A DNA stretch of 64,000 nucleotides from a virus. Its lineage: Duplodnaviria; Caudoviricetes. Each line of letters starts with the position of its first letter. The first letter of the stretch is position 1. The position numbers and the translations under genes are program-made. Location: positions 96,425 through 160,424 of IMG/VR virus record IMGVR_UViG_3300048502_000015, one strand, 5' to 3'. Shown in pieces: positions 13,537 to 50,580 of the stretch. The notes beneath the pieces were generated by a model, which saw nothing but the letters and a program-made list of their open reading frames with translations, was not told the origin of the DNA and ran no database searches.

Positions 13537-14961
13537 ATGAGCAACTTCCTCCCCACTCCAGAGCAGCAGGCAGCCCTCGACGCATTTGCTACAGGCGAGA
13601 ACATGGTCATTCAGGCCGGTGCAGGAACCGGCAAGACCTCAACGCTTCGCCTTCTGGCAGAGTCCACAAGTAAATCAGGACTATACTTGGCCTACAACAA
13701 GGCAATCCAGCTTGATGCTGCTAAGGATTTCCCGGAGTCCTGCCAATGCAAGACGGCTCACTCGCTTGCCTACGGTGGTGTCATTCGGATGCCGAACGGT
13801 AAGTCCCTTCTGAACCGCCTCCGTGCTCCTCGCGTCACTTCCAAGCAGGCCGTTTCGATCCTTGGAATTCCCTCTGGCGGATTTCAGATCAGCAACGATC
13901 AGAACCTTGCCGCTTGGATCATCGCTCGCGCAGCGATGGATACGGTCAAGAACTTCTGCAACAGCGCCGACACCGAGGTTGACAAGAAGCACGTTGCTAA
14001 GATCGACGGGGTTGAGGATCACGCTTCTCTCGCCTCCTACGTGGCTCCGTTTGCTGCTAAGGCTTGGGCCGACCTGAACAACAAGGACGGCCAGCTTAAG
14101 TTCGACCACGATCACTACCTCAAGATCTGGGCGCTGTCTAACCCCAAGCTGAACGCCGATTACATCCTCTTTGATGAGGCTCAGGATGCCAACCCGGTCA
14201 TCGTCGGAATCCTGAAGAACCAGGATGCCCAGCTTGTAGCGGTTGGCGATGAGGCTCAGGCCATCTACGGCTGGAGAGGCGCAGTTGACGCGATGCACGC
14301 CTTCGACGCTAAGCACCGTGTAACGCTCTCTCAGAGCTTCCGCTTCGGTCCTGCGGTTGCTGAGCAGGCCAACAAGTACCTTGACCTTCTTGACGCTCCG
14401 CTGCGTCTGAGCGGCTTCGATAAGGTCAACTCAACGGTCGAGATCCTTTCGGACCCCGATGCAATCCTCTGCCGCACGAATGCAGCGGTTTTCGAGTACG
14501 CAATGAACTTCCAGGCCGATGGCAAGAAGGTTGCAATCGTCGGAGGGGCAACCGAGATCAAGAACTTTGCTTTCGGCGCTCTTGCTCTGATGAAGGGCGA
14601 GACTACTAGCCACCCCGACCTGTCGGCTTTCGCTAACTGGGCCGAGGTTAACGAGTACGTCGGCAGCGACGAGGGCAAGGATCTCAAGGTCATGGTCAAC
14701 ATGGTCAACATGTACGGGGTCGGCGCAATCCTCGACGTTTGCAACAACTCTGTTGACGAGTCCTCAGCCGATCTAATTGTTTCTACCGCCCACAAGAGCA
14801 AGGGCCGGGAATGGAATAAGGTTCGAATTGGACGGGACTTCAAGGCTCCTGAGAGCGGTGTTCCGAGCCGTCAGGATCTTATGTTGCTATATGTCTCTGT
14901 AACCCGTGCCAAGATCGTCCTTGACGCCTCTGCACTCTCCTGGGTAGATGATCTCTCATGA
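13537..14961 (+). CDS. UvrD/Rep-like superfamily 1 helicase
   Basis: AGAGTGKT, DEAQD, VGDEAQAIYGWRGA, LSQSFRFG, STAHKSKGREW, YVSVTRA. Confidence 0.93.
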   Translation: MSNFLPTPEQQAALDAFATGENMVIQAGAGTGKTSTLRLLAESTSKSGLYLAYNKAIQLDAAKDFPESCQCKTAHSLAYGGVIRMPNGKSLLNRLRAPRVTSKQAVSILGIPSGGFQISNDQNLAAWIIARAAMDTVKNFCNSADTEVDKKHVAKIDGVEDHASLASYVAPFAAKAWADLNNKDGQLKFDHDHYLKIWALSNPKLNADYILFDEAQDANPVIVGILKNQDAQLVAVGDEAQAIYGWRGAVDAMHAFDAKHRVTLSQSFRFGPAVAEQANKYLDLLDAPLRLSGFDKVNSTVEILSDPDAILCRTNAAVFEYAMNFQADGKKVAIVGGATEIKNFAFGALALMKGETTSHPDLSAFANWAEVNEYVGSDEGKDLKVMVNMVNMYGVGAILDVCNNSVDESSADLIVSTAHKSKGREWNKVRIGRDFKAPESGVPSRQDLMLLYVSVTRAKIVLDASALSWVDDLS

Positions 14962-36534: not shown

Positions 36535-36890
36535 GTAAAACTATCGAACTCCATTGCGAACTCGGCAATCACGAGTGGTCCCGCGAGTCCCAACGGGGTC
36601 GCAGACCAGTCAACTGTCCGGAGCATCAGCCGGTAATCGAGGAAACTGAAAAGAAGGTTAGCCTCAACCAAATTATCTCTGGTGAAGCTCGTGCCAAAGC
36701 CATCAACGATATTGTCAGCATTCATCCCGAATGTAAATGCGATATCCGCGATGACATGACCGATGATGAACTTATGCACGTCAAGAGTTGTGCTCCGCAT
36801 TGGCAATGTTCTACTCTTGATGCTGTACGCCGTCGCGTAGTAAACTACAACCGTCATTTCGATCAGGACGATTACGAGGTATCTCTCTAA
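36531..36890 (+). CDS. Cys/His-rich hypothetical protein
   Basis: C..G.H.W, GRRP..CPEH motifs. Confidence 0.6.
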   Translation: MSKTIELHCELGNHEWSRESQRGRRPVNCPEHQPVIEETEKKVSLNQIISGEARAKAINDIVSIHPECKCDIRDDMTDDELMHVKSCAPHWQCSTLDAVRRRVVNYNRHFDQDDYEVSL

Positions 36891-37049
36891 TGCAAATAAT
36901 GAGCGACTTCGAGGTTGTCGCTTGGGATTGGCGAGAGCCGAACGTGATCGCCGTCTACTCCGAAGAGCAGGACGCCAAGGACTTTGCCGAGACAATGGAC
37001 GCAAGCGGGCTTTGCTGTTATGTGCGGCCTCTACAGGAGAAACAAACAG

Positions 37050-38455
37050 ATGAGTGACGAACGCCGGAAGAACGCGATCCTCAGGGTCTATCAGATGTAC
37101 GCGAACCTCAACTACTACGACGACGAACGGCCCATCGACGAGGAGATCGAGCAGATCGTTGAGGCCGTATTCGCCTCGACGGTTGACCCGCTCGACGCCG
37201 AGTTGACTGCTGCTCTAGCTCGTGCAGAACAAGCCGAACAAATGCTTAGTGTCTCTGAGGAACACTGCGAGTTCTGGAAGGCTCGTGCAGAACAAGCCGA
37301 GAAGGCACTCAGAGATTCCTGGCGGCTGATGCTTCGTTCCCGGCGAATCGCTCGTGCTGTTCTTTCATCTGAGGAACAGGAAGGAAAGCCATGATGCGAG
37401 TTAGATTGCATCGTTCGTTCTGGCTTGCTCGCCCGCGTCGATGGGATTTCACTCGGCAGCCGGATTGGATCGCATCGTCGGGAGAATTGGTCTATGGCGC
37501 TTGGTGGCTACGTATCGGGCCGATTGTGTTCGAGTACGGCGTCGGTCGCGGAATACGGCGAGAAGGAAAGCCAGATGCTTGAACTACGACCGTGGCGCGT
37601 CAAGACTTCCGAGCGCAAGATGCTCGTTGAGGCGTTGTTCGAGTTGACCGATGCTAGTGATCGCCTGCCGGTCAAGCGCGAGCGAAATGCCGATGAGCAG
37701 GATGCGGTAGAGACGTGGACAGAAGCCGTGGTCCGTGCTCGCGCGGTTCTCAGGCTGCTGGCAAACAGGTACTACTCGTGACTGATCCTGTATTGGTCGC
37801 TCTACTCAAGGCGAACATGAGAGCCGGAGAGATACGCGACGCCGAAGTCAACCGGCACGAACCTTGGCGCGCTCACGGCTCGCTGCCGATCATGCGTGGC
37901 GCTCCAACGCATTCGTGCGCTTATCTCCTTCAGGCTCTTGTTGAGGATGGATGGGAACTACGAAAGGTAGGAGAGCCGTGAGTCCAGTCAAAGATGGGCC
38001 GTCGTGTCCCAGACACTCGGGGACCTGCGGATTGCCGAACTATGCGGGCATGTGTCCTCATTGCCGAGGCGATCAGGCAGCCTACGAGCATGAGCTTGTT
38101 CCGCCCTTCGACTCATCCCTGCCGACAGACGGAGTAGACGTGATCGGCACCGACAACGATCCTTGGGTGGTCAGTAATGAGTAAAGCCGAGAAGCCGCCA
38201 GAGATGCTGCTCGATCCCGATGGGGAGGGCGTTTACCTTTCAAGCGAGATCGACGGATTCCCGCCGATACTGATGCGTGCCGCCGCGCTATTCGGCGTCG
38301 GTTGGCGCGATGTCGAGTGCAAAACGGTCTTGATGTACCCGGACAATGACGGGCTATGGCATCGCAAACCGTGGAACTGGCGGTGGATGGCGCGGCTGAA
38401 TCTTCCGAAGCGGTGGAGTCCGGCGGTCTATTGCTATTGCCGACCTAAGTCGTGA
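37050..38455 (+). other. GC-richer run of six overlapping small ORFs (37050-37394, 37391-37582, 37575-37781, 37778-37981, 37978-38184, 38177-38455)
   Basis: ATGA/GTGA stop-start overlaps, purine-rich SDs, visibly higher GC than flanks. Confidence 0.6.
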
Positions 38456-38545
38456 CTGTCGGGCTACCTAAGGAGAACGATAGTTTGTTTCTTTTACATA
38501 AAGTATGCTATAATACTTGAAAGACTCTAACATTTAAGGAAAAAT

Positions 38546-43957: not shown

Positions 43958-44683
43958 CTAAACGGAAATCATTACCATTGGTGGCTTTCTATTTCCAATT
44001 GGTTCAAGCATTTCGGTATCCACAATTGATCGAAGATAAGCAATTGTTACTCCTGGGTGAGCGTGTCCTAATTGTGTCATAACTGACATTAGGCCAATAT
44101 TTTCTCGCCACCATTCTGTAGCAGCCGCATGACGTAATGCATGAGGATGAAAACGACGACGTAATTTTGCTCGTTCACCAACATCTCTAAATTGATCTCT
44201 TACCGCACTATCATGCATAGCTCGCCCAATGGTAGATCCCGAGAGGACACAAAAGATTTGTCCCGGAGGAAGCGTGCGACGAATTTCTAGCCAACGTTCA
44301 AATTCAACCCATCCCCAATCATCCATTAATACAAGACGACGTTTACCACCTTTACCGTTACGAATTACAATTTTACGTTCCCTGCGATCAAGGTCACGTT
44401 CTTCTAAAGCAAGTGCTTCACTAATTCGCATTCCAGTTCGCCAAAGAACTATAATCAACCCTCGTAACCGAACAGCCGAATATTCTGCTATTAAACCGGG
44501 ACGAAGAGGAACACATGCTTGTAAGACCGCAACAATATCCTCAACGGGTGGAGGATCTGGCGGATATCTGCGACCTTTAGTTGCAGGCGGTTTAGTTGGT
44601 TTATAACCACTAATGCTTGCTGGAGAACGTCGTCTTCCCCGAGCATCCAATAGATAATTTGGAATGCTATCTATAGAATCCAT
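43958..44683 (-). CDS. Tyrosine recombinase (short, invertase/Rci-like)
   Basis: Full catalytic set: TGMRISE (R), GKGGK (K), HALRH (HxxR), QLGH (H), TIAYL (Y); 241 aa with no long N-terminal arm domain. Confidence 0.92.
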   Translation of the reverse strand: MDSIDSIPNYLLDARGRRRSPASISGYKPTKPPATKGRRYPPDPPPVEDIVAVLQACVPLRPGLIAEYSAVRLRGLIIVLWRTGMRISEALALEERDLDRRERKIVIRNGKGGKRRLVLMDDWGWVEFERWLEIRRTLPPGQIFCVLSGSTIGRAMHDSAVRDQFRDVGERAKLRRRFHPHALRHAAATEWWRENIGLMSVMTQLGHAHPGVTIAYLRSIVDTEMLEPIGNRKPPMVMISV

Positions 44684-44720
44684 TTAAATAGTCTCCGTTC
44701 TTAGAACAATAGGAGACTAT

Positions 44721-44729
44721 ATTATAGCA
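44721..44729 (-). promoter_or_regulatory. Extended -10 promoter of recombinase (TGCTATAAT)
   Basis: Lies directly 3' of site S1 on the minus strand. Confidence 0.7.
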
Positions 44730-44730
44730 T

Positions 44731-44757
44731 AACTTTCGCCAAACTCGGGAGTCGAGC
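44731..44757 (-). repeat. Putative recombination site S1
   Basis: GCTCGACTCCCGAGTTTGGCGA (44736-44757) is an exact 22 bp inverted copy of 50554-50575. Confidence 0.8.
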
Positions 44758-44895
44758 GCTCTAGCGGTAGACTCGCGCGATCGTGCCCGACCTAGTAGAC
44801 ACTCTGATGAGCGACGATCCGCTTTGCTCACGCCCGCTGGTAGTAGATATCTACGCTGTAGATGTTCATGACAGTCTAGTGCCACACGAACCGAA

Positions 44896-45081
44896 TCAGT
44901 CCGCCGCCGACTTGTCTTCCATCGCTTTGTCTACAAGTTGACGAATGCTGCCAGGCAGATTGTCGAGCCCGACCGGAAACACGGCACCCTCGGCAATGGC
45001 TCGTTCGCCGATAATCACCTTGTCTGTATTACGCTCGGTCATGATGACTCGAAACTCGACACGATGAAACTCAAGACTCAT
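44896..45081 (-). CDS. Small protein downstream of fibre (possible chaperone)
   Basis: ATGA overlap with fibre stop; inside the GC-rich cassette. Confidence 0.55.
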   Translation of the reverse strand: MSLEFHRVEFRVIMTERNTDKVIIGERAIAEGAVFPVGLDNLPGSIRQLVDKAMEDKSAAD

Positions 45082-46952
45082 AGGTAGCACTCCTTGACTT
45101 CGACGATCGGTGGGGAGCCGCCGAGGTTTACGATTTCGTAGTAAAAGCCGGGTGGCACGGGAAATGTCATGGACGTGTTGCTAGCGACACTTACCGCCCC
45201 GGACTGAAACACGTCTGTGCGGCAATACTCGGTCGTCGGTGGATTGTTGGCGTCCATGTTGATCTTTACGCCAGAGGTGACGCCGGTCGCGGCGGTCATG
45301 TTCATGGTTACCGTGACCAACGTTGTTCGTGTCGTACTCGGTTGATAGGCGGTACCGAGCGCGCGTGTGGGCGCAGAAGGCTGCACTGCCTGACCAATCA
45401 GCAGCGTTCCTGTAACGCCGTCCGCTCCATACCACGATGGCTGATTTGTACTGTTTGCAGCGTAAAGGAAGCCGCCGCTACTGGGATCGCTCGTAGGGTT
45501 TGTGGCTGCCGCTGCCAGTGAAATACCACCAGAACCACCGCCTGTCGTCGATGCGCCAGCGACGTAGAGCGTGCTTCCGAAATAGCCGTTGCGCCATTTG
45601 AAAGAGACGCTGCCCAGATCCTTCACAGAGCTAGAGATTGGTGTGTGCGTGCCCGATGTCATGTTGCCCGCGCTGTCGATGTACCAAGCCGGGGTCGATC
45701 CGCTGTCGCTGTAGACGATGATCGGGTTGGTCCAGCCTGCTGCGCCTTCGACACGAATCGCCTGATTCAAAACGACATTGGTCGGGTTGGTGTTGCTGAT
45801 GCGTAGGCCAATAGACGTTTTGCCTGATCCAGCCGTTGATGTTGCCGGGCTGAATTGGATGCGCGCGCCGTACTGGTTGACACCAACGTTGTCGGTCATC
45901 ACCGCGTCAATAGCAAAGAAGTCGCCACCGAGATCACCGCTGGTGTTCTGAATCGAGCCAATGAACAGGCCCATCTGACCAGACCCGTGGTGCTGAACGT
46001 TGCCCCAAAATACCTGCCCCGAACCGGCGTTGTTCTTGATGTAGACACCGCCGAATATCTGCCCGTACGTTGTTGGGCCTGTGTTGGAACCGGCGTTGTC
46101 GGTGAAGTTCTCGACGTAGAAGACGCCGTCTTTGTAGCCGCTGTCACGGTAGACGTGCGCGGCTCCCCACGATGCGCTTGAGATAAATGAGCCGATTCCG
46201 GCGCCGCTTTGGTTGGCGGCAGATTGGAGTGAGTCACCCGAAGCAGAACTGCTACTTACCACCGACGTTGGTAGCTGCCCAGGCCCAGATGCACCGCTAA
46301 TCGTATAGCGTGAATCTAGACTGGATAATGTCTTATGACTTGCAATTGGCCACCAAGAACCTGAAGCGTCTGTTTCCAACAAAACTGTTTCATCAGATAA
46401 TTTTAGAGTTATTGATCCCGAAGAATCTCGAATTCCGCCTGTAACTGTAACTGTGTTAATTGGTGCGGTTACCGGGGAAGCCGAAGGATAAGCAAAATTA
46501 GGAGTTTGAGAAGTGACCGTTAACGAAGTTGCCCCGGCAGATGCGGGAGCCGATAATGTCCATGTTTGGGAATTAGTTCCTGAAGTGAGTGTTACTATAA
46601 TTCCCGACGCAAAAGCATAAGGAATTGCAACTACTGGAAGTGTTGTTATCGGTCCTCCGGTAGAAAGAGGAGATGATAATGTAGTGCTTCCGTTAACGTT
46701 TTGAACCGCGATTAGAGATCCGGGAATTTGTCCCGATGGGAGAGCTTCGCTTAAAGCCCCTGCCGTCGCATTAACAGGCGTTAGTGTGTTGATTGCTAAA
46801 GTTGTTGATGTAGTAATTGGAGCAGCAACCGTCATTCTAGAGAATGCAGTTGTGTCGGTATAGGCCCCGATATGTTGGACCATAGCCTCAAAGTTAGCTG
46901 CGTCGGTTGCTAGACCAGAATAATCGGTCCAGCCAAAAGGAGTAATAGCCAT
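45078..46952 (-). CDS. Tail fibre / receptor-binding protein A
   Basis: Thr/Ser/Gly-rich; DLGS...KW...YF fibre motif; N-terminus paralogous to 48041 gene. Confidence 0.8.
   Translation of the reverse strand: MAITPFGWTDYSGLATDAANFEAMVQHIGAYTDTTAFSRMTVAAPITTSTTLAINTLTPVNATAGALSEALPSGQIPGSLIAVQNVNGSTTLSSPLSTGGPITTLPVVAIPYAFASGIIVTLTSGTNSQTWTLSAPASAGATSLTVTSQTPNFAYPSASPVTAPINTVTVTGGIRDSSGSITLKLSDETVLLETDASGSWWPIASHKTLSSLDSRYTISGASGPGQLPTSVVSSSSASGDSLQSAANQSGAGIGSFISSASWGAAHVYRDSGYKDGVFYVENFTDNAGSNTGPTTYGQIFGGVYIKNNAGSGQVFWGNVQHHGSGQMGLFIGSIQNTSGDLGGDFFAIDAVMTDNVGVNQYGARIQFSPATSTAGSGKTSIGLRISNTNPTNVVLNQAIRVEGAAGWTNPIIVYSDSGSTPAWYIDSAGNMTSGTHTPISSSVKDLGSVSFKWRNGYFGSTLYVAGASTTGGGSGGISLAAAATNPTSDPSSGGFLYAANSTNQPSWYGADGVTGTLLIGQAVQPSAPTRALGTAYQPSTTRTTLVTVTMNMTAATGVTSGVKINMDANNPPTTEYCRTDVFQSGAVSVASNTSMTFPVPPGFYYEIVNLGGSPPIVEVKECYL
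46254..46274 (-). repeat. Putative in-frame recombination site S2 (LPTSVVS)
   Basis: CTACCAACGTCGGTGGTAAGT; near the GC shift. Confidence 0.6.
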
Positions 46953-46958
46953 TACTTC

Positions 46959-47999
46959 TTAAGTATCCGAAACATACTGAATTGATTGGGTACTTTCCAC
47001 TATCCCTATATTAAATGGCCCATCCTCAAAGGTATAAACCCAATCGCCGTTAGGAATATAGACGTAAACCGTTTCATTGTCGATCTCAACAGGGTAAAGT
47101 AGGTATCCCGTTTCTTGTGAAAGGATCGATGTAGCTATTGGGTAGTAAAAGAATTTCCCAACTAAAATGGCATCCTCATAAAGCCTTAAAATCTTACTAT
47201 TAAATCTACTTATACTTATGTGTTGCGACTGTCCGTATCCCTGAGGGTAAGTGTGCGGATTTGGATAAAGGTAAGGGGAGGGGTAGGTAGCATTTCCCGC
47301 AATCAAAATTTTGTTAATTGATTTACCAAAATGAATAGCTTGAGATTGACCTATAACTAGAATCTTTGGAGTAACGTTTTTGAAAATGGTTAGACTTTGT
47401 GGTTGACCCGGAACTGATCCTGGAGTACTAGGGAAAAGTGAATTATTTGGATAAAGGTTATTTGACGGCCACAATCCTAAATTGCTTCCTGGAGTAAGAA
47501 CCTTACTAATAAACTTCGAAAGAGAAAGATTTTGTGATTGGGATAAATGGTTAATCTTAGCTAAATTCCGCCCGATAGTAATTGTTTGTGCCTGCGTTGG
47601 CCTAAGGACTTTTGCTGACTGACGAAGGGACAGACTTAAGTTTTGTGGTTGTCCCGACCCATCAGTTGGATAAAGGGTGGTAGAAGGATAAAGCGAAGTT
47701 GACGGATATAGAGCAGCATGACCACAAAGGATATAAGTTTTGTGAACCGATTTAGAAGTAATTATGGATTGCCCTTGTCCCGCGCCGCTCATAGGAAAGG
47801 AACCTGGATTAGGATACGATCCAGGATTTGGATATGAAGAGTTGCCCCCATACACGGTTACGACCTTCATAGTTCGGTTAGATCGACTTATATTTTGGGC
47901 CTGAGTAGGATTTATTCCTTTAATGACTTGTTTTTTGATCGAAAGAGATTGAGATTGACTTGTCGAGATATTTTCGTTGTACGTTGTCATTACACCCAT
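46959..47999 (-). CDS. Repeat-containing virion protein (YPxxxLYP motifs)
   Basis: Four triple-YP blocks and QxQx[IL] repeats. Confidence 0.7.
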   Translation of the reverse strand: MGVMTTYNENISTSQSQSLSIKKQVIKGINPTQAQNISRSNRTMKVVTVYGGNSSYPNPGSYPNPGSFPMSGAGQGQSIITSKSVHKTYILCGHAALYPSTSLYPSTTLYPTDGSGQPQNLSLSLRQSAKVLRPTQAQTITIGRNLAKINHLSQSQNLSLSKFISKVLTPGSNLGLWPSNNLYPNNSLFPSTPGSVPGQPQSLTIFKNVTPKILVIGQSQAIHFGKSINKILIAGNATYPSPYLYPNPHTYPQGYGQSQHISISRFNSKILRLYEDAILVGKFFYYPIATSILSQETGYLLYPVEIDNETVYVYIPNGDWVYTFEDGPFNIGIVESTQSIQYVSDT

Positions 48000-48040
48000 T
48001 ATGCATTAGTTTCCTTGACTCTTCTGGCAGATAAACATTG

Positions 48041-50554
48041 ATGACTCCTATTGCTCCCTTCGGATGGACTAACAATTCTGGTCTTCCTCTTAGCGCCGCA
48101 GATTTAGAGGCCATGCTTGCACAAGCAGGGGCATATACCGATACCCTTGCTACCAATATTGAAAATGGATCTGCCCTCCCGAGTTCGGTGGGAAGCGGGA
48201 CTCCAGCCAACCAAGCGATCTTCGTCGGGAATGGCACTAGCTGGGCCACGCTACCGATCGGCACGGCAGGCGCGACGATGCTCATGGTGCGCTCGGACGG
48301 GACGCTCCAGTATATCAAGACGCCAAAAATCTATGCCTCGGCGTGGGGGGTGGTAAACGACGGCGTTACCCTGAATGACACCGCGATCAATAGCGCAATC
48401 GCCGCAGCAGCGGCGCTCCCGGCCGGTGGGGGCTGCATAGATTGGGGTGCCGGTGAGATAGCGATCAGCACCCAGATCGTGATTCCCGCAGGCGTATCAA
48501 CGGATGGTGGTGGGAGTGGCACGCAGAGCAGCAACGGGACTAGCATTGTCAGCGCCGGGACCACTTTTGTCTGTACGAACGCCGCATCCGGCATCCAGAT
48601 CGATAGCCCGCAAGGTGGCTATCACCGTGGCTGGGTTGTCGATGGTCGGGGAGTCGGCACGGGTGGCTCAGAGGGCGCGATCCTTGAGATCCTGAACGGC
48701 ACATCAACGAACTTTATGGACGTGTCCGCCTTTCGCGGGGCGCTCGACAACACGCACATCAAGTCCACGCAGAACACCACATTCATAGGCTGCGCCAACG
48801 TCCGGGCAGCACGCGACAACGTTGTCATCGACCTCGGGGCCGGTGGCCTCGTATTCCAGCGCTGCGAGCGCTACGGGGCTGGCCGAACAAATCTCCGTAT
48901 CCAGCAGTCGGGCACGTCCTCTAGCGTCTACTCGACACCATCTGATCTTCTCTTTCTCGGCGGTGGGTTGGACGAGCACAACCAGGGCACCTATGTAGGT
49001 ACGCCCGTCACGGCAACGACGAATTCAACGACGACGCTGGCGGCAATCGGCAGCTTTACGGATATCTTGGAGGGCACGTATATCTCGGGCGCGGCGATCG
49101 TGGCCGGAACGTACATCTGCTCGATAAACCGTGCCGCCGGGACGGCCGTGATGAGTCAGGCGGCGACGGCGAGTGCGAGCGGAGTGACAATCACGCCGAC
49201 GTACTTCCCGCCCGTCGTGGTGGCAGAGGGCGCCACGAACAACCAGAGCATCTGGTTTGGCCCGCGTCACACGATGGGCCAGGGCGACACGACAGCGACC
49301 GCTACGCCCGTACTCTGGGTTGGTGCTGCGGGTCGGGTCGTACTCGGGGGCGTTGACTTCTACACGACCGGGGCATTCTCTATTCCGGCATACGTCGTGG
49401 CCGCCAGTGGGACAGGGCTTGCGACCACGGGCATCAACTACTTCTCCGCTGGCCCCGCTGCCGCGATTGATGATTCTTCCGGAGCAACGGTGCGCGTGTC
49501 CCCCGGCTCGCTTGACCTCGGTACTGGTGTGGTTCCGCTTACGTCAACGACGACGAACTACGGCGACTCGTCGGTCTACACGCTGGTCTACGCGCCGCAG
49601 ATCGTGCAGCGCGGGGCTGCTAGCAACACGGTCCTAGCGTCTCTCCTTGCGGGAGATGTGGGGCAGCGCGCACGCCTCTTGGCAGACGGAACACTGGAGT
49701 TCAACTACGGCGGCAGCGGCTATTCGTTCGGCGCCAAGGTGTTCCCCGAGTCCGATGGCACCGTAGGAATCTCACCAGCGCCAACGATTACGGGGCTGCC
49801 TGGGTCGGCCATCAGCCTGCGCATAGCGGGCGCAAACCCCGGTCCGCCAAGCAGCGGGGCGCATGTTGCCAACGACCTCGTTCTCGACACCGTTGCGCCA
49901 CGCCTACTCGTCACGACCGCAGCAGGCACACCGGGAACCTTCGTTGATGTCGCCGCCTACGCTGCCGGTCAAGCCTCTGTGGCGGCGGCGGCGGTGCTTC
50001 CCGTCGTAACCGGGAAGGGTCTTTACTTCCAGGCCCAGTATTCGATCAGCACTTCGGTAACGCTCGCTAACGGCACGCTGCGACTGAGTCCCGTGTACGT
50101 GCCGATAGCCTGCACCATCGAGCAGATGTTCGCGGAGTTCACTGCGGCCGGGGACGCGCCATCCGTGCTCGCGCTCTGCATCTACACCGACAACGGAAGC
50201 TATTACCCTGGCACGCTGCTCCTCACCGGCCCCACGATCAGCACTGGTAGCGGCAACGCCGGGACGGTCAGCACAGGAGGTACGCCGGGAATGTACGGTG
50301 GCAGTTGCTCACAGGCGCTCACTCCCGGCTGGTATTGGATGGGCGGCGTGATCCAGGGTGTCACGGTCACGCAGCCAACGATTCGCACCGGCATATGGGG
50401 ACCGTTCGCAGTGGGCACGACGACGCTTCCGGGGACCAACGACAATGACATCGGCTACGACCAGGGCAGCGTCACTGGGGCACTCCCTGGCACGTTCCAA
50501 TCCACGCGCGGGCGCTCATCCGCAACGCCGCGTATCGGTGTGCAGATCACGTAG
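48041..50554 (+). CDS. Tailspike / receptor-binding protein B with pectate-lyase-like beta helix
   Basis: WGVVNDGVTLNDTAINSAI..A..GGG.I...G beta-helix cap; GPPSSG...AAGTPGT fibre motif. Confidence 0.82.
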   Translation: MTPIAPFGWTNNSGLPLSAADLEAMLAQAGAYTDTLATNIENGSALPSSVGSGTPANQAIFVGNGTSWATLPIGTAGATMLMVRSDGTLQYIKTPKIYASAWGVVNDGVTLNDTAINSAIAAAAALPAGGGCIDWGAGEIAISTQIVIPAGVSTDGGGSGTQSSNGTSIVSAGTTFVCTNAASGIQIDSPQGGYHRGWVVDGRGVGTGGSEGAILEILNGTSTNFMDVSAFRGALDNTHIKSTQNTTFIGCANVRAARDNVVIDLGAGGLVFQRCERYGAGRTNLRIQQSGTSSSVYSTPSDLLFLGGGLDEHNQGTYVGTPVTATTNSTTTLAAIGSFTDILEGTYISGAAIVAGTYICSINRAAGTAVMSQAATASASGVTITPTYFPPVVVAEGATNNQSIWFGPRHTMGQGDTTATATPVLWVGAAGRVVLGGVDFYTTGAFSIPAYVVAASGTGLATTGINYFSAGPAAAIDDSSGATVRVSPGSLDLGTGVVPLTSTTTNYGDSSVYTLVYAPQIVQRGAASNTVLASLLAGDVGQRARLLADGTLEFNYGGSGYSFGAKVFPESDGTVGISPAPTITGLPGSAISLRIAGANPGPPSSGAHVANDLVLDTVAPRLLVTTAAGTPGTFVDVAAYAAGQASVAAAAVLPVVTGKGLYFQAQYSISTSVTLANGTLRLSPVYVPIACTIEQMFAEFTAAGDAPSVLALCIYTDNGSYYPGTLLLTGPTISTGSGNAGTVSTGGTPGMYGGSCSQALTPGWYWMGGVIQGVTVTQPTIRTGIWGPFAVGTTTLPGTNDNDIGYDQGSVTGALPGTFQSTRGRSSATPRIGVQIT
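48176..48196 (+). repeat. Putative in-frame recombination site S3 (LPSSVGS)
   Basis: CTCCCGAGTTCGGTGGGAAGC, 18/21 identical to S4. Confidence 0.75.
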
Positions 50555-50580
50555 CTCGACTCCCGAGTTTGGCGAGAAGC
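50554..50580 (+). repeat. Putative recombination site S4
   Basis: GCTCGACTCCCGAGTTTGGCGAGAAGC beginning at the last base of the tailspike stop codon. Confidence 0.8.

Follow-up and report, generated by a model that had tools for sequence, protein, structure and literature searches.

A candidate tyrosine-recombinase module for exchange of the receptor-binding tips of two tail-fibre genes in a Caudoviricetes genome

The DNA analysed here (hereafter the window) is a stretch of 64,000 nucleotides (nt) from a virus (Duplodnaviria; Caudoviricetes), positions 96,425 to 160,424 of IMG/VR record IMGVR_UViG_3300048502_000015, and represents the final 64 kb of a 160,424-bp record judged complete. At positions 43958-50580 of the window, a gene for a tyrosine recombinase adjoins two divergent tail-fibre genes, fibre 1 (45078-46952, - strand) and fibre 2 (48041-50554, + strand), each formed by a constant N-terminal part (N-part), a short in-frame internal site (S2 or S3), a C-terminal part or tip, and a terminal site (S1 or S4) beyond it (Table 1). 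We put at roughly 0.6 the probability that this locus is a site-specific recombination module serving the receptor-binding ends of the two tail-fibre/tailspike genes. Such a module would be related to the known Rin shufflon, but without its silent inverted cassettes (see below).

A striking feature of the locus is that two unrelated tips begin and end alike. As originally predicted, both open with TCGGTGG[T/G]AAG and close with GCTCGACTCCCGAGTT; tips A and B are identical at 10 of their first 11 bases and at all of their last 16. The internal-site consensus is ..CCGAGTTCGGTGGnAAGC.., which encodes LPxSV, and the terminal-site sequence, GCTCGACTCCCGAGTTTGGCGAGAAGC, lies just beyond the final stop codon of the tip; both are variants of one motif, ..GTTYGGYGRnAAGC, the terminal site being about 27 bp long, with an internal dyad of only 4 bp. 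The centres of the two kinds of site are unlike in every phage examined (here, GGTGG vs GGCGA). Between S1 and S4, 22 nt are repeated perfectly in inverted orientation (44736-44757 and 50554-50575). S2 and S3 share one reading phase, as proposed, with the codons CTA CCA ACG TCG GTG GTA AGT (LPTSVVS) in S2 and CTC CCG AGT TCG GTG GGA AGC (LPSSVGS) in S3. Of the four related sites of the original prediction, S1, S3 and S4 are well defined: a search with their consensus gave three matches against 0.04 expected, and no further copy was found in the 160-kb genome. S2 is weaker, being identical to S3 at 15 of 21 bases. A weight matrix made from the sites of the relatives only (see below) and run over the whole phage ranked S3 first (29.0 bits) and S2 second (18.8 bits), the top score over 20 shuffles averaging 15.2 with a maximum of 20.8; since its score falls within the shuffle range, S2 is backed by its position and context, and not by score alone. 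The genome has only these four sites, both tips are in complete genes, and no silent start-less cassettes were found in the phage. An origin of the site from a tRNA end (attB-like) was considered and rejected, as no tRNA was found at any match or within the window. A metagenome scan for the terminal site was likewise discarded, its 50 loci all being chance coding matches (TPEFGD, for example in HemB) and none having a recombinase, and an exact-site scan of viral contigs gave no match.

The N-termini of the two fibres are paralogous (21 of 34 residues identical, E 5e-9) and the remainder of the proteins is unlike, in agreement with the original prediction. The GC content of the backbone is 0.40-0.47, and at the sites it rises from about 0.45 to 0.58 in tip A (range 0.55-0.59) and 0.64 in tip B (range 0.57-0.66); the phage genome has an overall value of 0.468. 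The tips, with any small companion open reading frame (ORF), are likely to be cassettes of foreign, GC-rich origin, with phages or prophages of a high-GC host clade as their source. In tip A, a 61-amino-acid (aa) ORF overlaps the fibre-1 stop codon. In tip B, residues 101-164 of fibre 2 match the Sf6 tailspike (E 4e-4), the homologues of fibre 2 bear Beta_helix, Pect-lyase, DUF5907 and BppL_N domains, and residues 645-838 (about the last 190) correspond to a modular C-terminal domain with 973 library matches; its AlphaFold2 (AF2) beta-sandwich resembles tail-tip proteins of the mycobacteriophages Bxb1 and Douge as well as carbohydrate-binding modules. A word-based protein search with the whole of fibre 2 gave no match. 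The nearest full-length homologue of tip B, P0122 (L168 6001-8544), is a 47%-identical bacterial protein with a Tat signal, encoded beside glycosyltransferase and Wzz-like genes in a polysaccharide locus; judging from this similarity, the tailspike tip may derive from, or have common ancestry with, a host polysaccharide-acting enzyme.

The recombinase matches PF00589 (E 8e-25), and R86, K111, H181, R184, H207 and Y216 are invariant in an alignment of 40 sequences (the recombinase and 39 homologues), in keeping with the intact tyrosine recombinase first described beside the fibre block. The AF2 model (predicted local distance difference test, pLDDT, 83.6) shows a catalytic fold that is ordered from near residue 47 onwards, and the closest solved folds are XerA and XerH. 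A helical N-terminal core-binding domain is absent, as judged from Pfam and AF2, and about 45 basic, low-confidence residues precede the catalytic fold; as modelled, the enzyme is a small Xer-like tyrosine recombinase formed by a catalytic domain and a basic tail, without a core-binding domain. A search of the whole phage genome revealed no second tyrosine recombinase and no serine recombinase (no PF00239 match). Homologues number in the thousands, with lengths of 230-255 aa; the best match among 50,697 deposited phage records has at most 32% identity, and a scan of viral contigs with the recombinase as the single protein gave no match. A hairpin over the ribosome-binding site of the gene (window 44684-44722, - strand; -13.4 kcal/mol, z -2.5) has counterparts over the ribosome-binding sites of the recombinase genes of relatives (L008 6416-6470; L009 2536-2590, z -3.7), which suggests that translation of the recombinase is tightly limited.

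Table 1. Features of the recombinase and tail-fibre locus (positions in the window)
Feature	Position	Strand	Description
Recombinase	43958..44683	-	Catalytic-core-only tyrosine recombinase, 241 aa; PF00589
Recombinase leader	44684..44730	-	TGCTATAAT directly after S1, then hairpin over GGAG ribosome-binding site
S1 terminal site	44731..44757	-	Closes tip cassette A; abuts recombinase promoter; L005 identity breaks here
Tip cassette A	44758..46250	-	GC ~0.58; fibre-1 C-part ~390 aa, 61-aa ORF (44896-45081), ~140-nt spacer between this ORF and S1
S2 internal in-frame site, fibre 1	46251..46274	-	LPTSVVSS; left half degenerate
Fibre-1 N-terminal constant part	46275..46952	-	~226 aa; backbone GC
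346-aa repeat protein	46959..47999	-	Between both fibre starts; weak PHROG minor-tail match
Fibre-2 N-terminal anchor	48041..48175	+	45 aa; paralogous to first 36 aa of fibre 1
S3 internal in-frame site, fibre 2	48176..48199	+	LPSSVGSG; genome's best match to relatives' internal site
Tip cassette B	48200..50553	+	GC 0.57-0.66; tailspike-like beta-helix part, then C-terminal jelly-roll domain
S4 terminal site	50554..50580	+	Begins at final base of fibre-2 stop codon

The site and the recombinase are conserved together in other genomes. At least eight other phage or prophage contigs (L008, L009, L069, L070, L071, L072, L073 and L075) carry a recombinase 53-64% identical to that of the window, and in these relatives, which are high-GC phages or prophages, the same unit is kept, consisting of the fibre N-part, internal site, tip, stop codon, terminal site and recombinase; in L082 the unit is present with a convergent gene order. 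Each relative has a single internal site, located 1.5-2.9 kb ahead of the recombinase. L008, L009, L070, L071, L072 and L073 have the form ..AGT TCG GTG GTA AGC.., in frame within a large ORF and 1.6-2.9 kb ahead of the recombinase; variants of this form are found in L069 and L075. A terminal-type site lies just past the stop codon of the preceding ORF, about 100-190 nt before the recombinase start, and L069 keeps the left arm of the terminal site, GCTCGACT. The internal site retains GTA and AGT although both codons are rare in the ORFs concerned, whose third positions are 65-91% GC (in L008, GTA accounts for two of 85 Val codons); this argues that the DNA itself is constrained, beyond the peptide it encodes. 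In addition, the recombinase gene of the relatives is located inside tail modules, beside Dit or P2 gpI-like genes, and a 95%-complete relative encodes a separate full-length integrase of 372 aa; both observations argue against a role of the relatives' recombinase in lysogeny. Most relatives have one fibre and directly oriented sites only, and neither extra inverted copies of the site nor silent cassettes were found in them.

Homology between units breaks at the sites. Across the fibre N-part, the recombinase gene and the tail genes downstream of it, L009 and L071 are about 68-70% identical in nt; their similarity is lost straight after the internal site and begins again some 60 nt ahead of the recombinase start, the N-parts being 70% identical in protein and the tips unrelated. 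A break of identity at the internal site was what the original prediction had proposed to look for in related genomes. Among the eleven units compared, the N-parts group into families and the tips are almost all unrelated. A natural variant of the window itself is represented by contig L005, from a different sample (3300048790), which runs up to S1 with 99.9% identity to the window over 1,017 nt; beyond S1, the contig continues with 225 nt of an unrelated, GC-rich ORF end with a TAG codon, followed by its own, slightly different terminal-site left arm. We read L005 as a real variant since no S4-type site has a long enough run in common with it for an assembler to misjoin the two. This third tip (tip C) is absent from the phage genome, and neither longer homologues nor an exact cluster were found for it; its assignment to the family of the tip-B C-terminal domain was rejected, with a profile score of 1.7 bits.

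Several observations count against a tip-exchange module. L005 is one short contig only. Contigs of five datasets are 99.8-100% identical to the window and collinear with it across the locus, and inverted, excised or other recombinant forms of the locus were not found in any of the five assemblies, the five datasets being nearly clonal and assemblers retaining the majority path only; look-ups with the recombinase and with the 61-aa ORF of tip A also returned the reference arrangement only. The phage is present in SRR30280133, SRR30280140 and JGI 3300048790, 3300048819 and 3300056815. The original prediction had proposed exchangeable tip cassettes together with inversion between S2 and S3 and excision of tips as circles. 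Exchange between sites is supported, by the unit kept in relatives, the breaks in homology and L005; inversion and circles are not. Protein searches found no donors of tips A, B or C. The left half of S2 is degenerate and differs from S3 at several positions. Furthermore, P0122, which has no recombinase gene over a distance of 6 kb, agrees with the internal site at 17 of 21 bases in its LPTSV codons, an indication that the similarity of the internal sites is in part an inherited protein motif, and in L169 the fibre-1 N-part has a homologue that continues into another C-part, with neither site nor recombinase, showing that fibre mosaicism at the joint between N-part and C-part also happens without the system.

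The last two cases are those on which an ordinary explanation would build, namely that a conserved protein motif was the place where recombination, homologous or illegitimate, brought in the tips, the recombinase being an unrelated integrase or dimer resolvase with S1 as its own site, and S3 and S4 look-alikes or dead relics. It is in line with this that the recombinase is the sole one in the genome and that no activity has been observed, in addition to the presence of LPxSV in homologues without a recombinase and the recombinase-free joint of L169 at the same place. However, the terminal sites are non-coding and yet conserved, with 16 identical bases ending two unrelated tips and the left arm kept in L069, and they are always found at the end of the tip, beside the recombinase, in unrelated phage backbones. 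These features, the rare codons kept in the internal site, the relative with a separate full-length integrase and the position of the gene within tail modules make mosaic fibres with an unrelated recombinase a decidedly unlikely account of the locus.

If the locus is a tip-exchange module, the recombinase would act on the sites, and from the sequences we infer the route as follows. The reaction best supported by the natural variants would be the replacement of the whole internal-to-terminal segment. The backbone would retain the N-part and the recombinase while the tip is replaced, and this would involve two crossovers between like sites (internal with internal and terminal with terminal) on two DNA molecules, the second of which could be, for example, a co-infecting phage or a resident prophage. 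With the centre assumed to be the crossover region, the unlike sites flanking a tip would shield it from deletion and permit its exchange. The head-to-head units of the window also create inverted like pairs, S2/S3 and S1/S4, and inversions would be possible by-products, of which none was seen.

Those inverted pairs could alternatively be the point of the system, the recombinase mainly flipping DNA inside the phage in a Rin-like inversion switch. Recombination of S2 with S3 would then swap the tips between the long and short anchors, one fibre would fall silent after S1 x S3 or S2 x S4, and S1 x S4 would flip the whole 5.8-kb block, changing which fibre operon parallels the upstream late genes. 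The inverted like pairs, the common phase of S2 and S3 and the 22 identical bases of S1 and S4 all fit such a switch, as does a search for terminator-like sites that found none separating the block from the minus-strand genes upstream of it; an in-gene site with a direct site right after the gene has also been reported for the Rin shufflon (PMC6109161). However, silent start-less cassettes are absent both here and in the relatives, and swapping two tips that are both expressed would alter little. Moreover, because the relatives are mostly single-fibre with direct sites only, inversion cannot be the basic reaction of the family or its ancestral role. A single orientation was found in all five assemblies, and the left half of S2 departs from S3. 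We regard a switch of this kind as fairly unlikely.

The unlike centres bear on a further alternative. Tyrosine recombinases usually require matching site centres. In an integron-style capture, a tip circle would be formed by internal x terminal recombination (S3 x S4 or S2 x S1) and be re-inserted at the internal site of another fibre. Direct, related sites do flank each tip, each tip ends with its own copy of the site, and the chromosomal relatives of the recombinase occur in arrays of directly repeated sites behind small genes (see below). Nevertheless, the differing centres of the flanking sites in every phage examined argue against easy excision of a circle, no empty site and no tandem tip array was found in any phage locus, and the recombinase is not IntI. 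Capture by this route seems very improbable, and replacement of the whole segment between like sites is the reaction that we retain.

In genome collections, the recombinase family is concentrated in Solirubrobacterales-type metagenome-assembled genomes (MAGs). The phage probably has its hosts in this clade, and the GC-rich tips would be in line with that. A 16-bp dyad, GCTTTGGACGA[GA]AAGC, homologous to the phage terminal site, is present in the loci L101, L104, L106, L109, L116, L120, L133 and L146, with two to six copies per 16 kb, usually at 2-12 nt from the end of a small gene (SnoaL_2, cupin), past its stop codon, and often followed after 7-9 nt by a second dyad, GCTTTGCATGGAAAGC. Upstream of the MAG recombinase gene stands one copy of the 16-bp dyad; three loci have a further, inverted copy downstream of the gene. 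Several MAGs contain 11-47 exact copies each, in small clusters, a reversed-pattern control giving none. This setting is cassette-like and speaks for the tip-exchange module. By their layout, the dyad arrays may represent mini-arrays of an integron-like kind, or else a small recombinase element together with its targets. More tentatively still, and with the odds rather against it, the phage locus would belong, as one of its arms, to an integron-like cassette system, so far undescribed, in high-GC Actinomycetota, namely Solirubrobacterales and their phages. The enzyme of such a system, a tyrosine recombinase reduced to its core, would use short dyad sites located just after stop codons, which would bound arrays of small accessory genes in the chromosome; in the phages, one site would have moved into the fibre frame, and whole tips would be captured or exchanged in frame between phages, prophages and perhaps host genes. 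The link to the multi-site arrays of Solirubrobacterales suggests, if correct, a wider cassette system outside the classical integron family.

The surroundings of the locus, and some observations made along the way, are as follows. The locus is flanked by genes for very large virion-type proteins on one side and by a ThyX-containing early/middle region on the other. A gap of 6 nt separates the gene of the 346-aa repeat protein from the fibre-1 start, and the two genes probably share a transcript. Comparison of the phage DNA with deposited phage genomes gave no DNA match, and relatives of the backbone, sought via ORF178, were not found. A 51%-identical recombinase is encoded between a type IV secretion operon and a PKD-like gene in a Saccharibacteria MAG contig (L006 / L083), a setting which indicates that the recombinase family is not confined to phage tails. 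In fibre 2, residues 640-838 (window 49955-50551) form a C-terminal beta-sandwich domain without a Pfam family; this widespread domain ends proteins of 190-1320 aa whose enzymatic front parts vary (beta-helix, GH16 and GDSL lipase). The phage has other GC-rich islands (0.56-0.69; window 13577-14876 and 36877-38476, genome 17901-18500 and 60101-61600), which are consistent with repeated gene uptake from a high-GC host; none of them is bounded by the sites. Two assemblies, JGI 3300048819 and Logan SRR30280133, which are possibly of one sample, both break inside tip B (window 49428-49439), with an overlap of 11-12 nt; the break could come from a coverage gap or from a branch in the population.

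Known sources of variation in phage receptor-binding tips are the flipping of cassettes kept in store, as by Gin, Cin, Min and Rin, the action of diversity-generating retroelements, and mosaic recombination of the ordinary kind. If true, a dedicated recombinase that replaces tips in frame without stored copies would be a different route to a change of host range, and would explain sharp fibre ends of foreign composition in phages of poorly studied soil Actinomycetota. With conserved sites of 20-27 bp and an enzyme of 241 aa, the idea lends itself to a direct test on plasmids, and a minimal recombinase with two unlike natural sites is a possible genetic tool.

The original prediction did not recognise a system of this type as described, which was half right, a tyrosine-recombinase system for receptor-binding tips being already known as the Rin shufflon (2018; PMC6109161). 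It was found in prophages of Bifidobacterium (and Eggerthella) (Mavrich et al., 2018; PMC6109161; PMC8778435), and has several promoterless alternative C-parts in inverted orientation, an 11-bp crossover site, TTCCCTAACCC, and inversions that were observed (PMC6109161). In both systems, a phage tyrosine recombinase without an arm-binding domain adjoins a gene for a receptor-binding protein formed by a constant N-part, a short in-frame crossover site and a variable C-part, and an in-gene site is paired with a direct site after the gene. The phage locus differs in that silent cassettes are absent, each tip being in a complete gene, in that most relatives have direct sites only, in the sequence of the site, and in that the two sites flanking a tip are of two kinds; also, Rin is reported with a core-binding domain, whereas the phage recombinase is without one. 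The R64 shufflon (Rci, sfx, pilV) likewise has its recombinase gene at the far end of the variable region and asymmetric sites in frame at the constant/variable joint of an adhesin. Rci is larger, with 384 aa and extra domains, and acts only on inverted sfx sites in an array of invertible segments; no such array is present in the phage locus. Gin (Mu), Cin (P1) and Min (p15B) are serine invertases that use an enhancer and strictly inverted sites, unlike the phage, whose genome encodes no PF00239 serine recombinase. In these systems too, however, alternative fibre C-parts with a small companion ORF are exchanged at the constant/variable joint (PMC6109161).

With integrons (IntI, attI, attC), the phage locus has in common that a cassette consists of coding DNA with its own 3' site, and that the recombinase stays with the platform; cassettes that differ on like platforms and are bounded by the sites are found here as well (L005 vs the window at S1, and L009 vs L071). 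The recombinase, in contrast, is a 241-aa protein that falls well below the cut-offs of the IntI profiles TIGR02249 (50 bits; cut-off 265) and NF011946 (46.5; cut-off 435), its sites are about 27 bp long without a long palindrome of the attC type (attC, 57-141 bp), and the insertion point lies within a coding frame, so that the phage cassette completes a protein and is not a free-standing gene. An analogy to the proposed reaction, and an analogy only, is an engineered laboratory method, recombinase-mediated cassette exchange with two unlike lox/FRT sites, in which a segment flanked by related sites with different centres can be exchanged between two molecules and is not easily deleted; the phage locus would be a natural counterpart of it.

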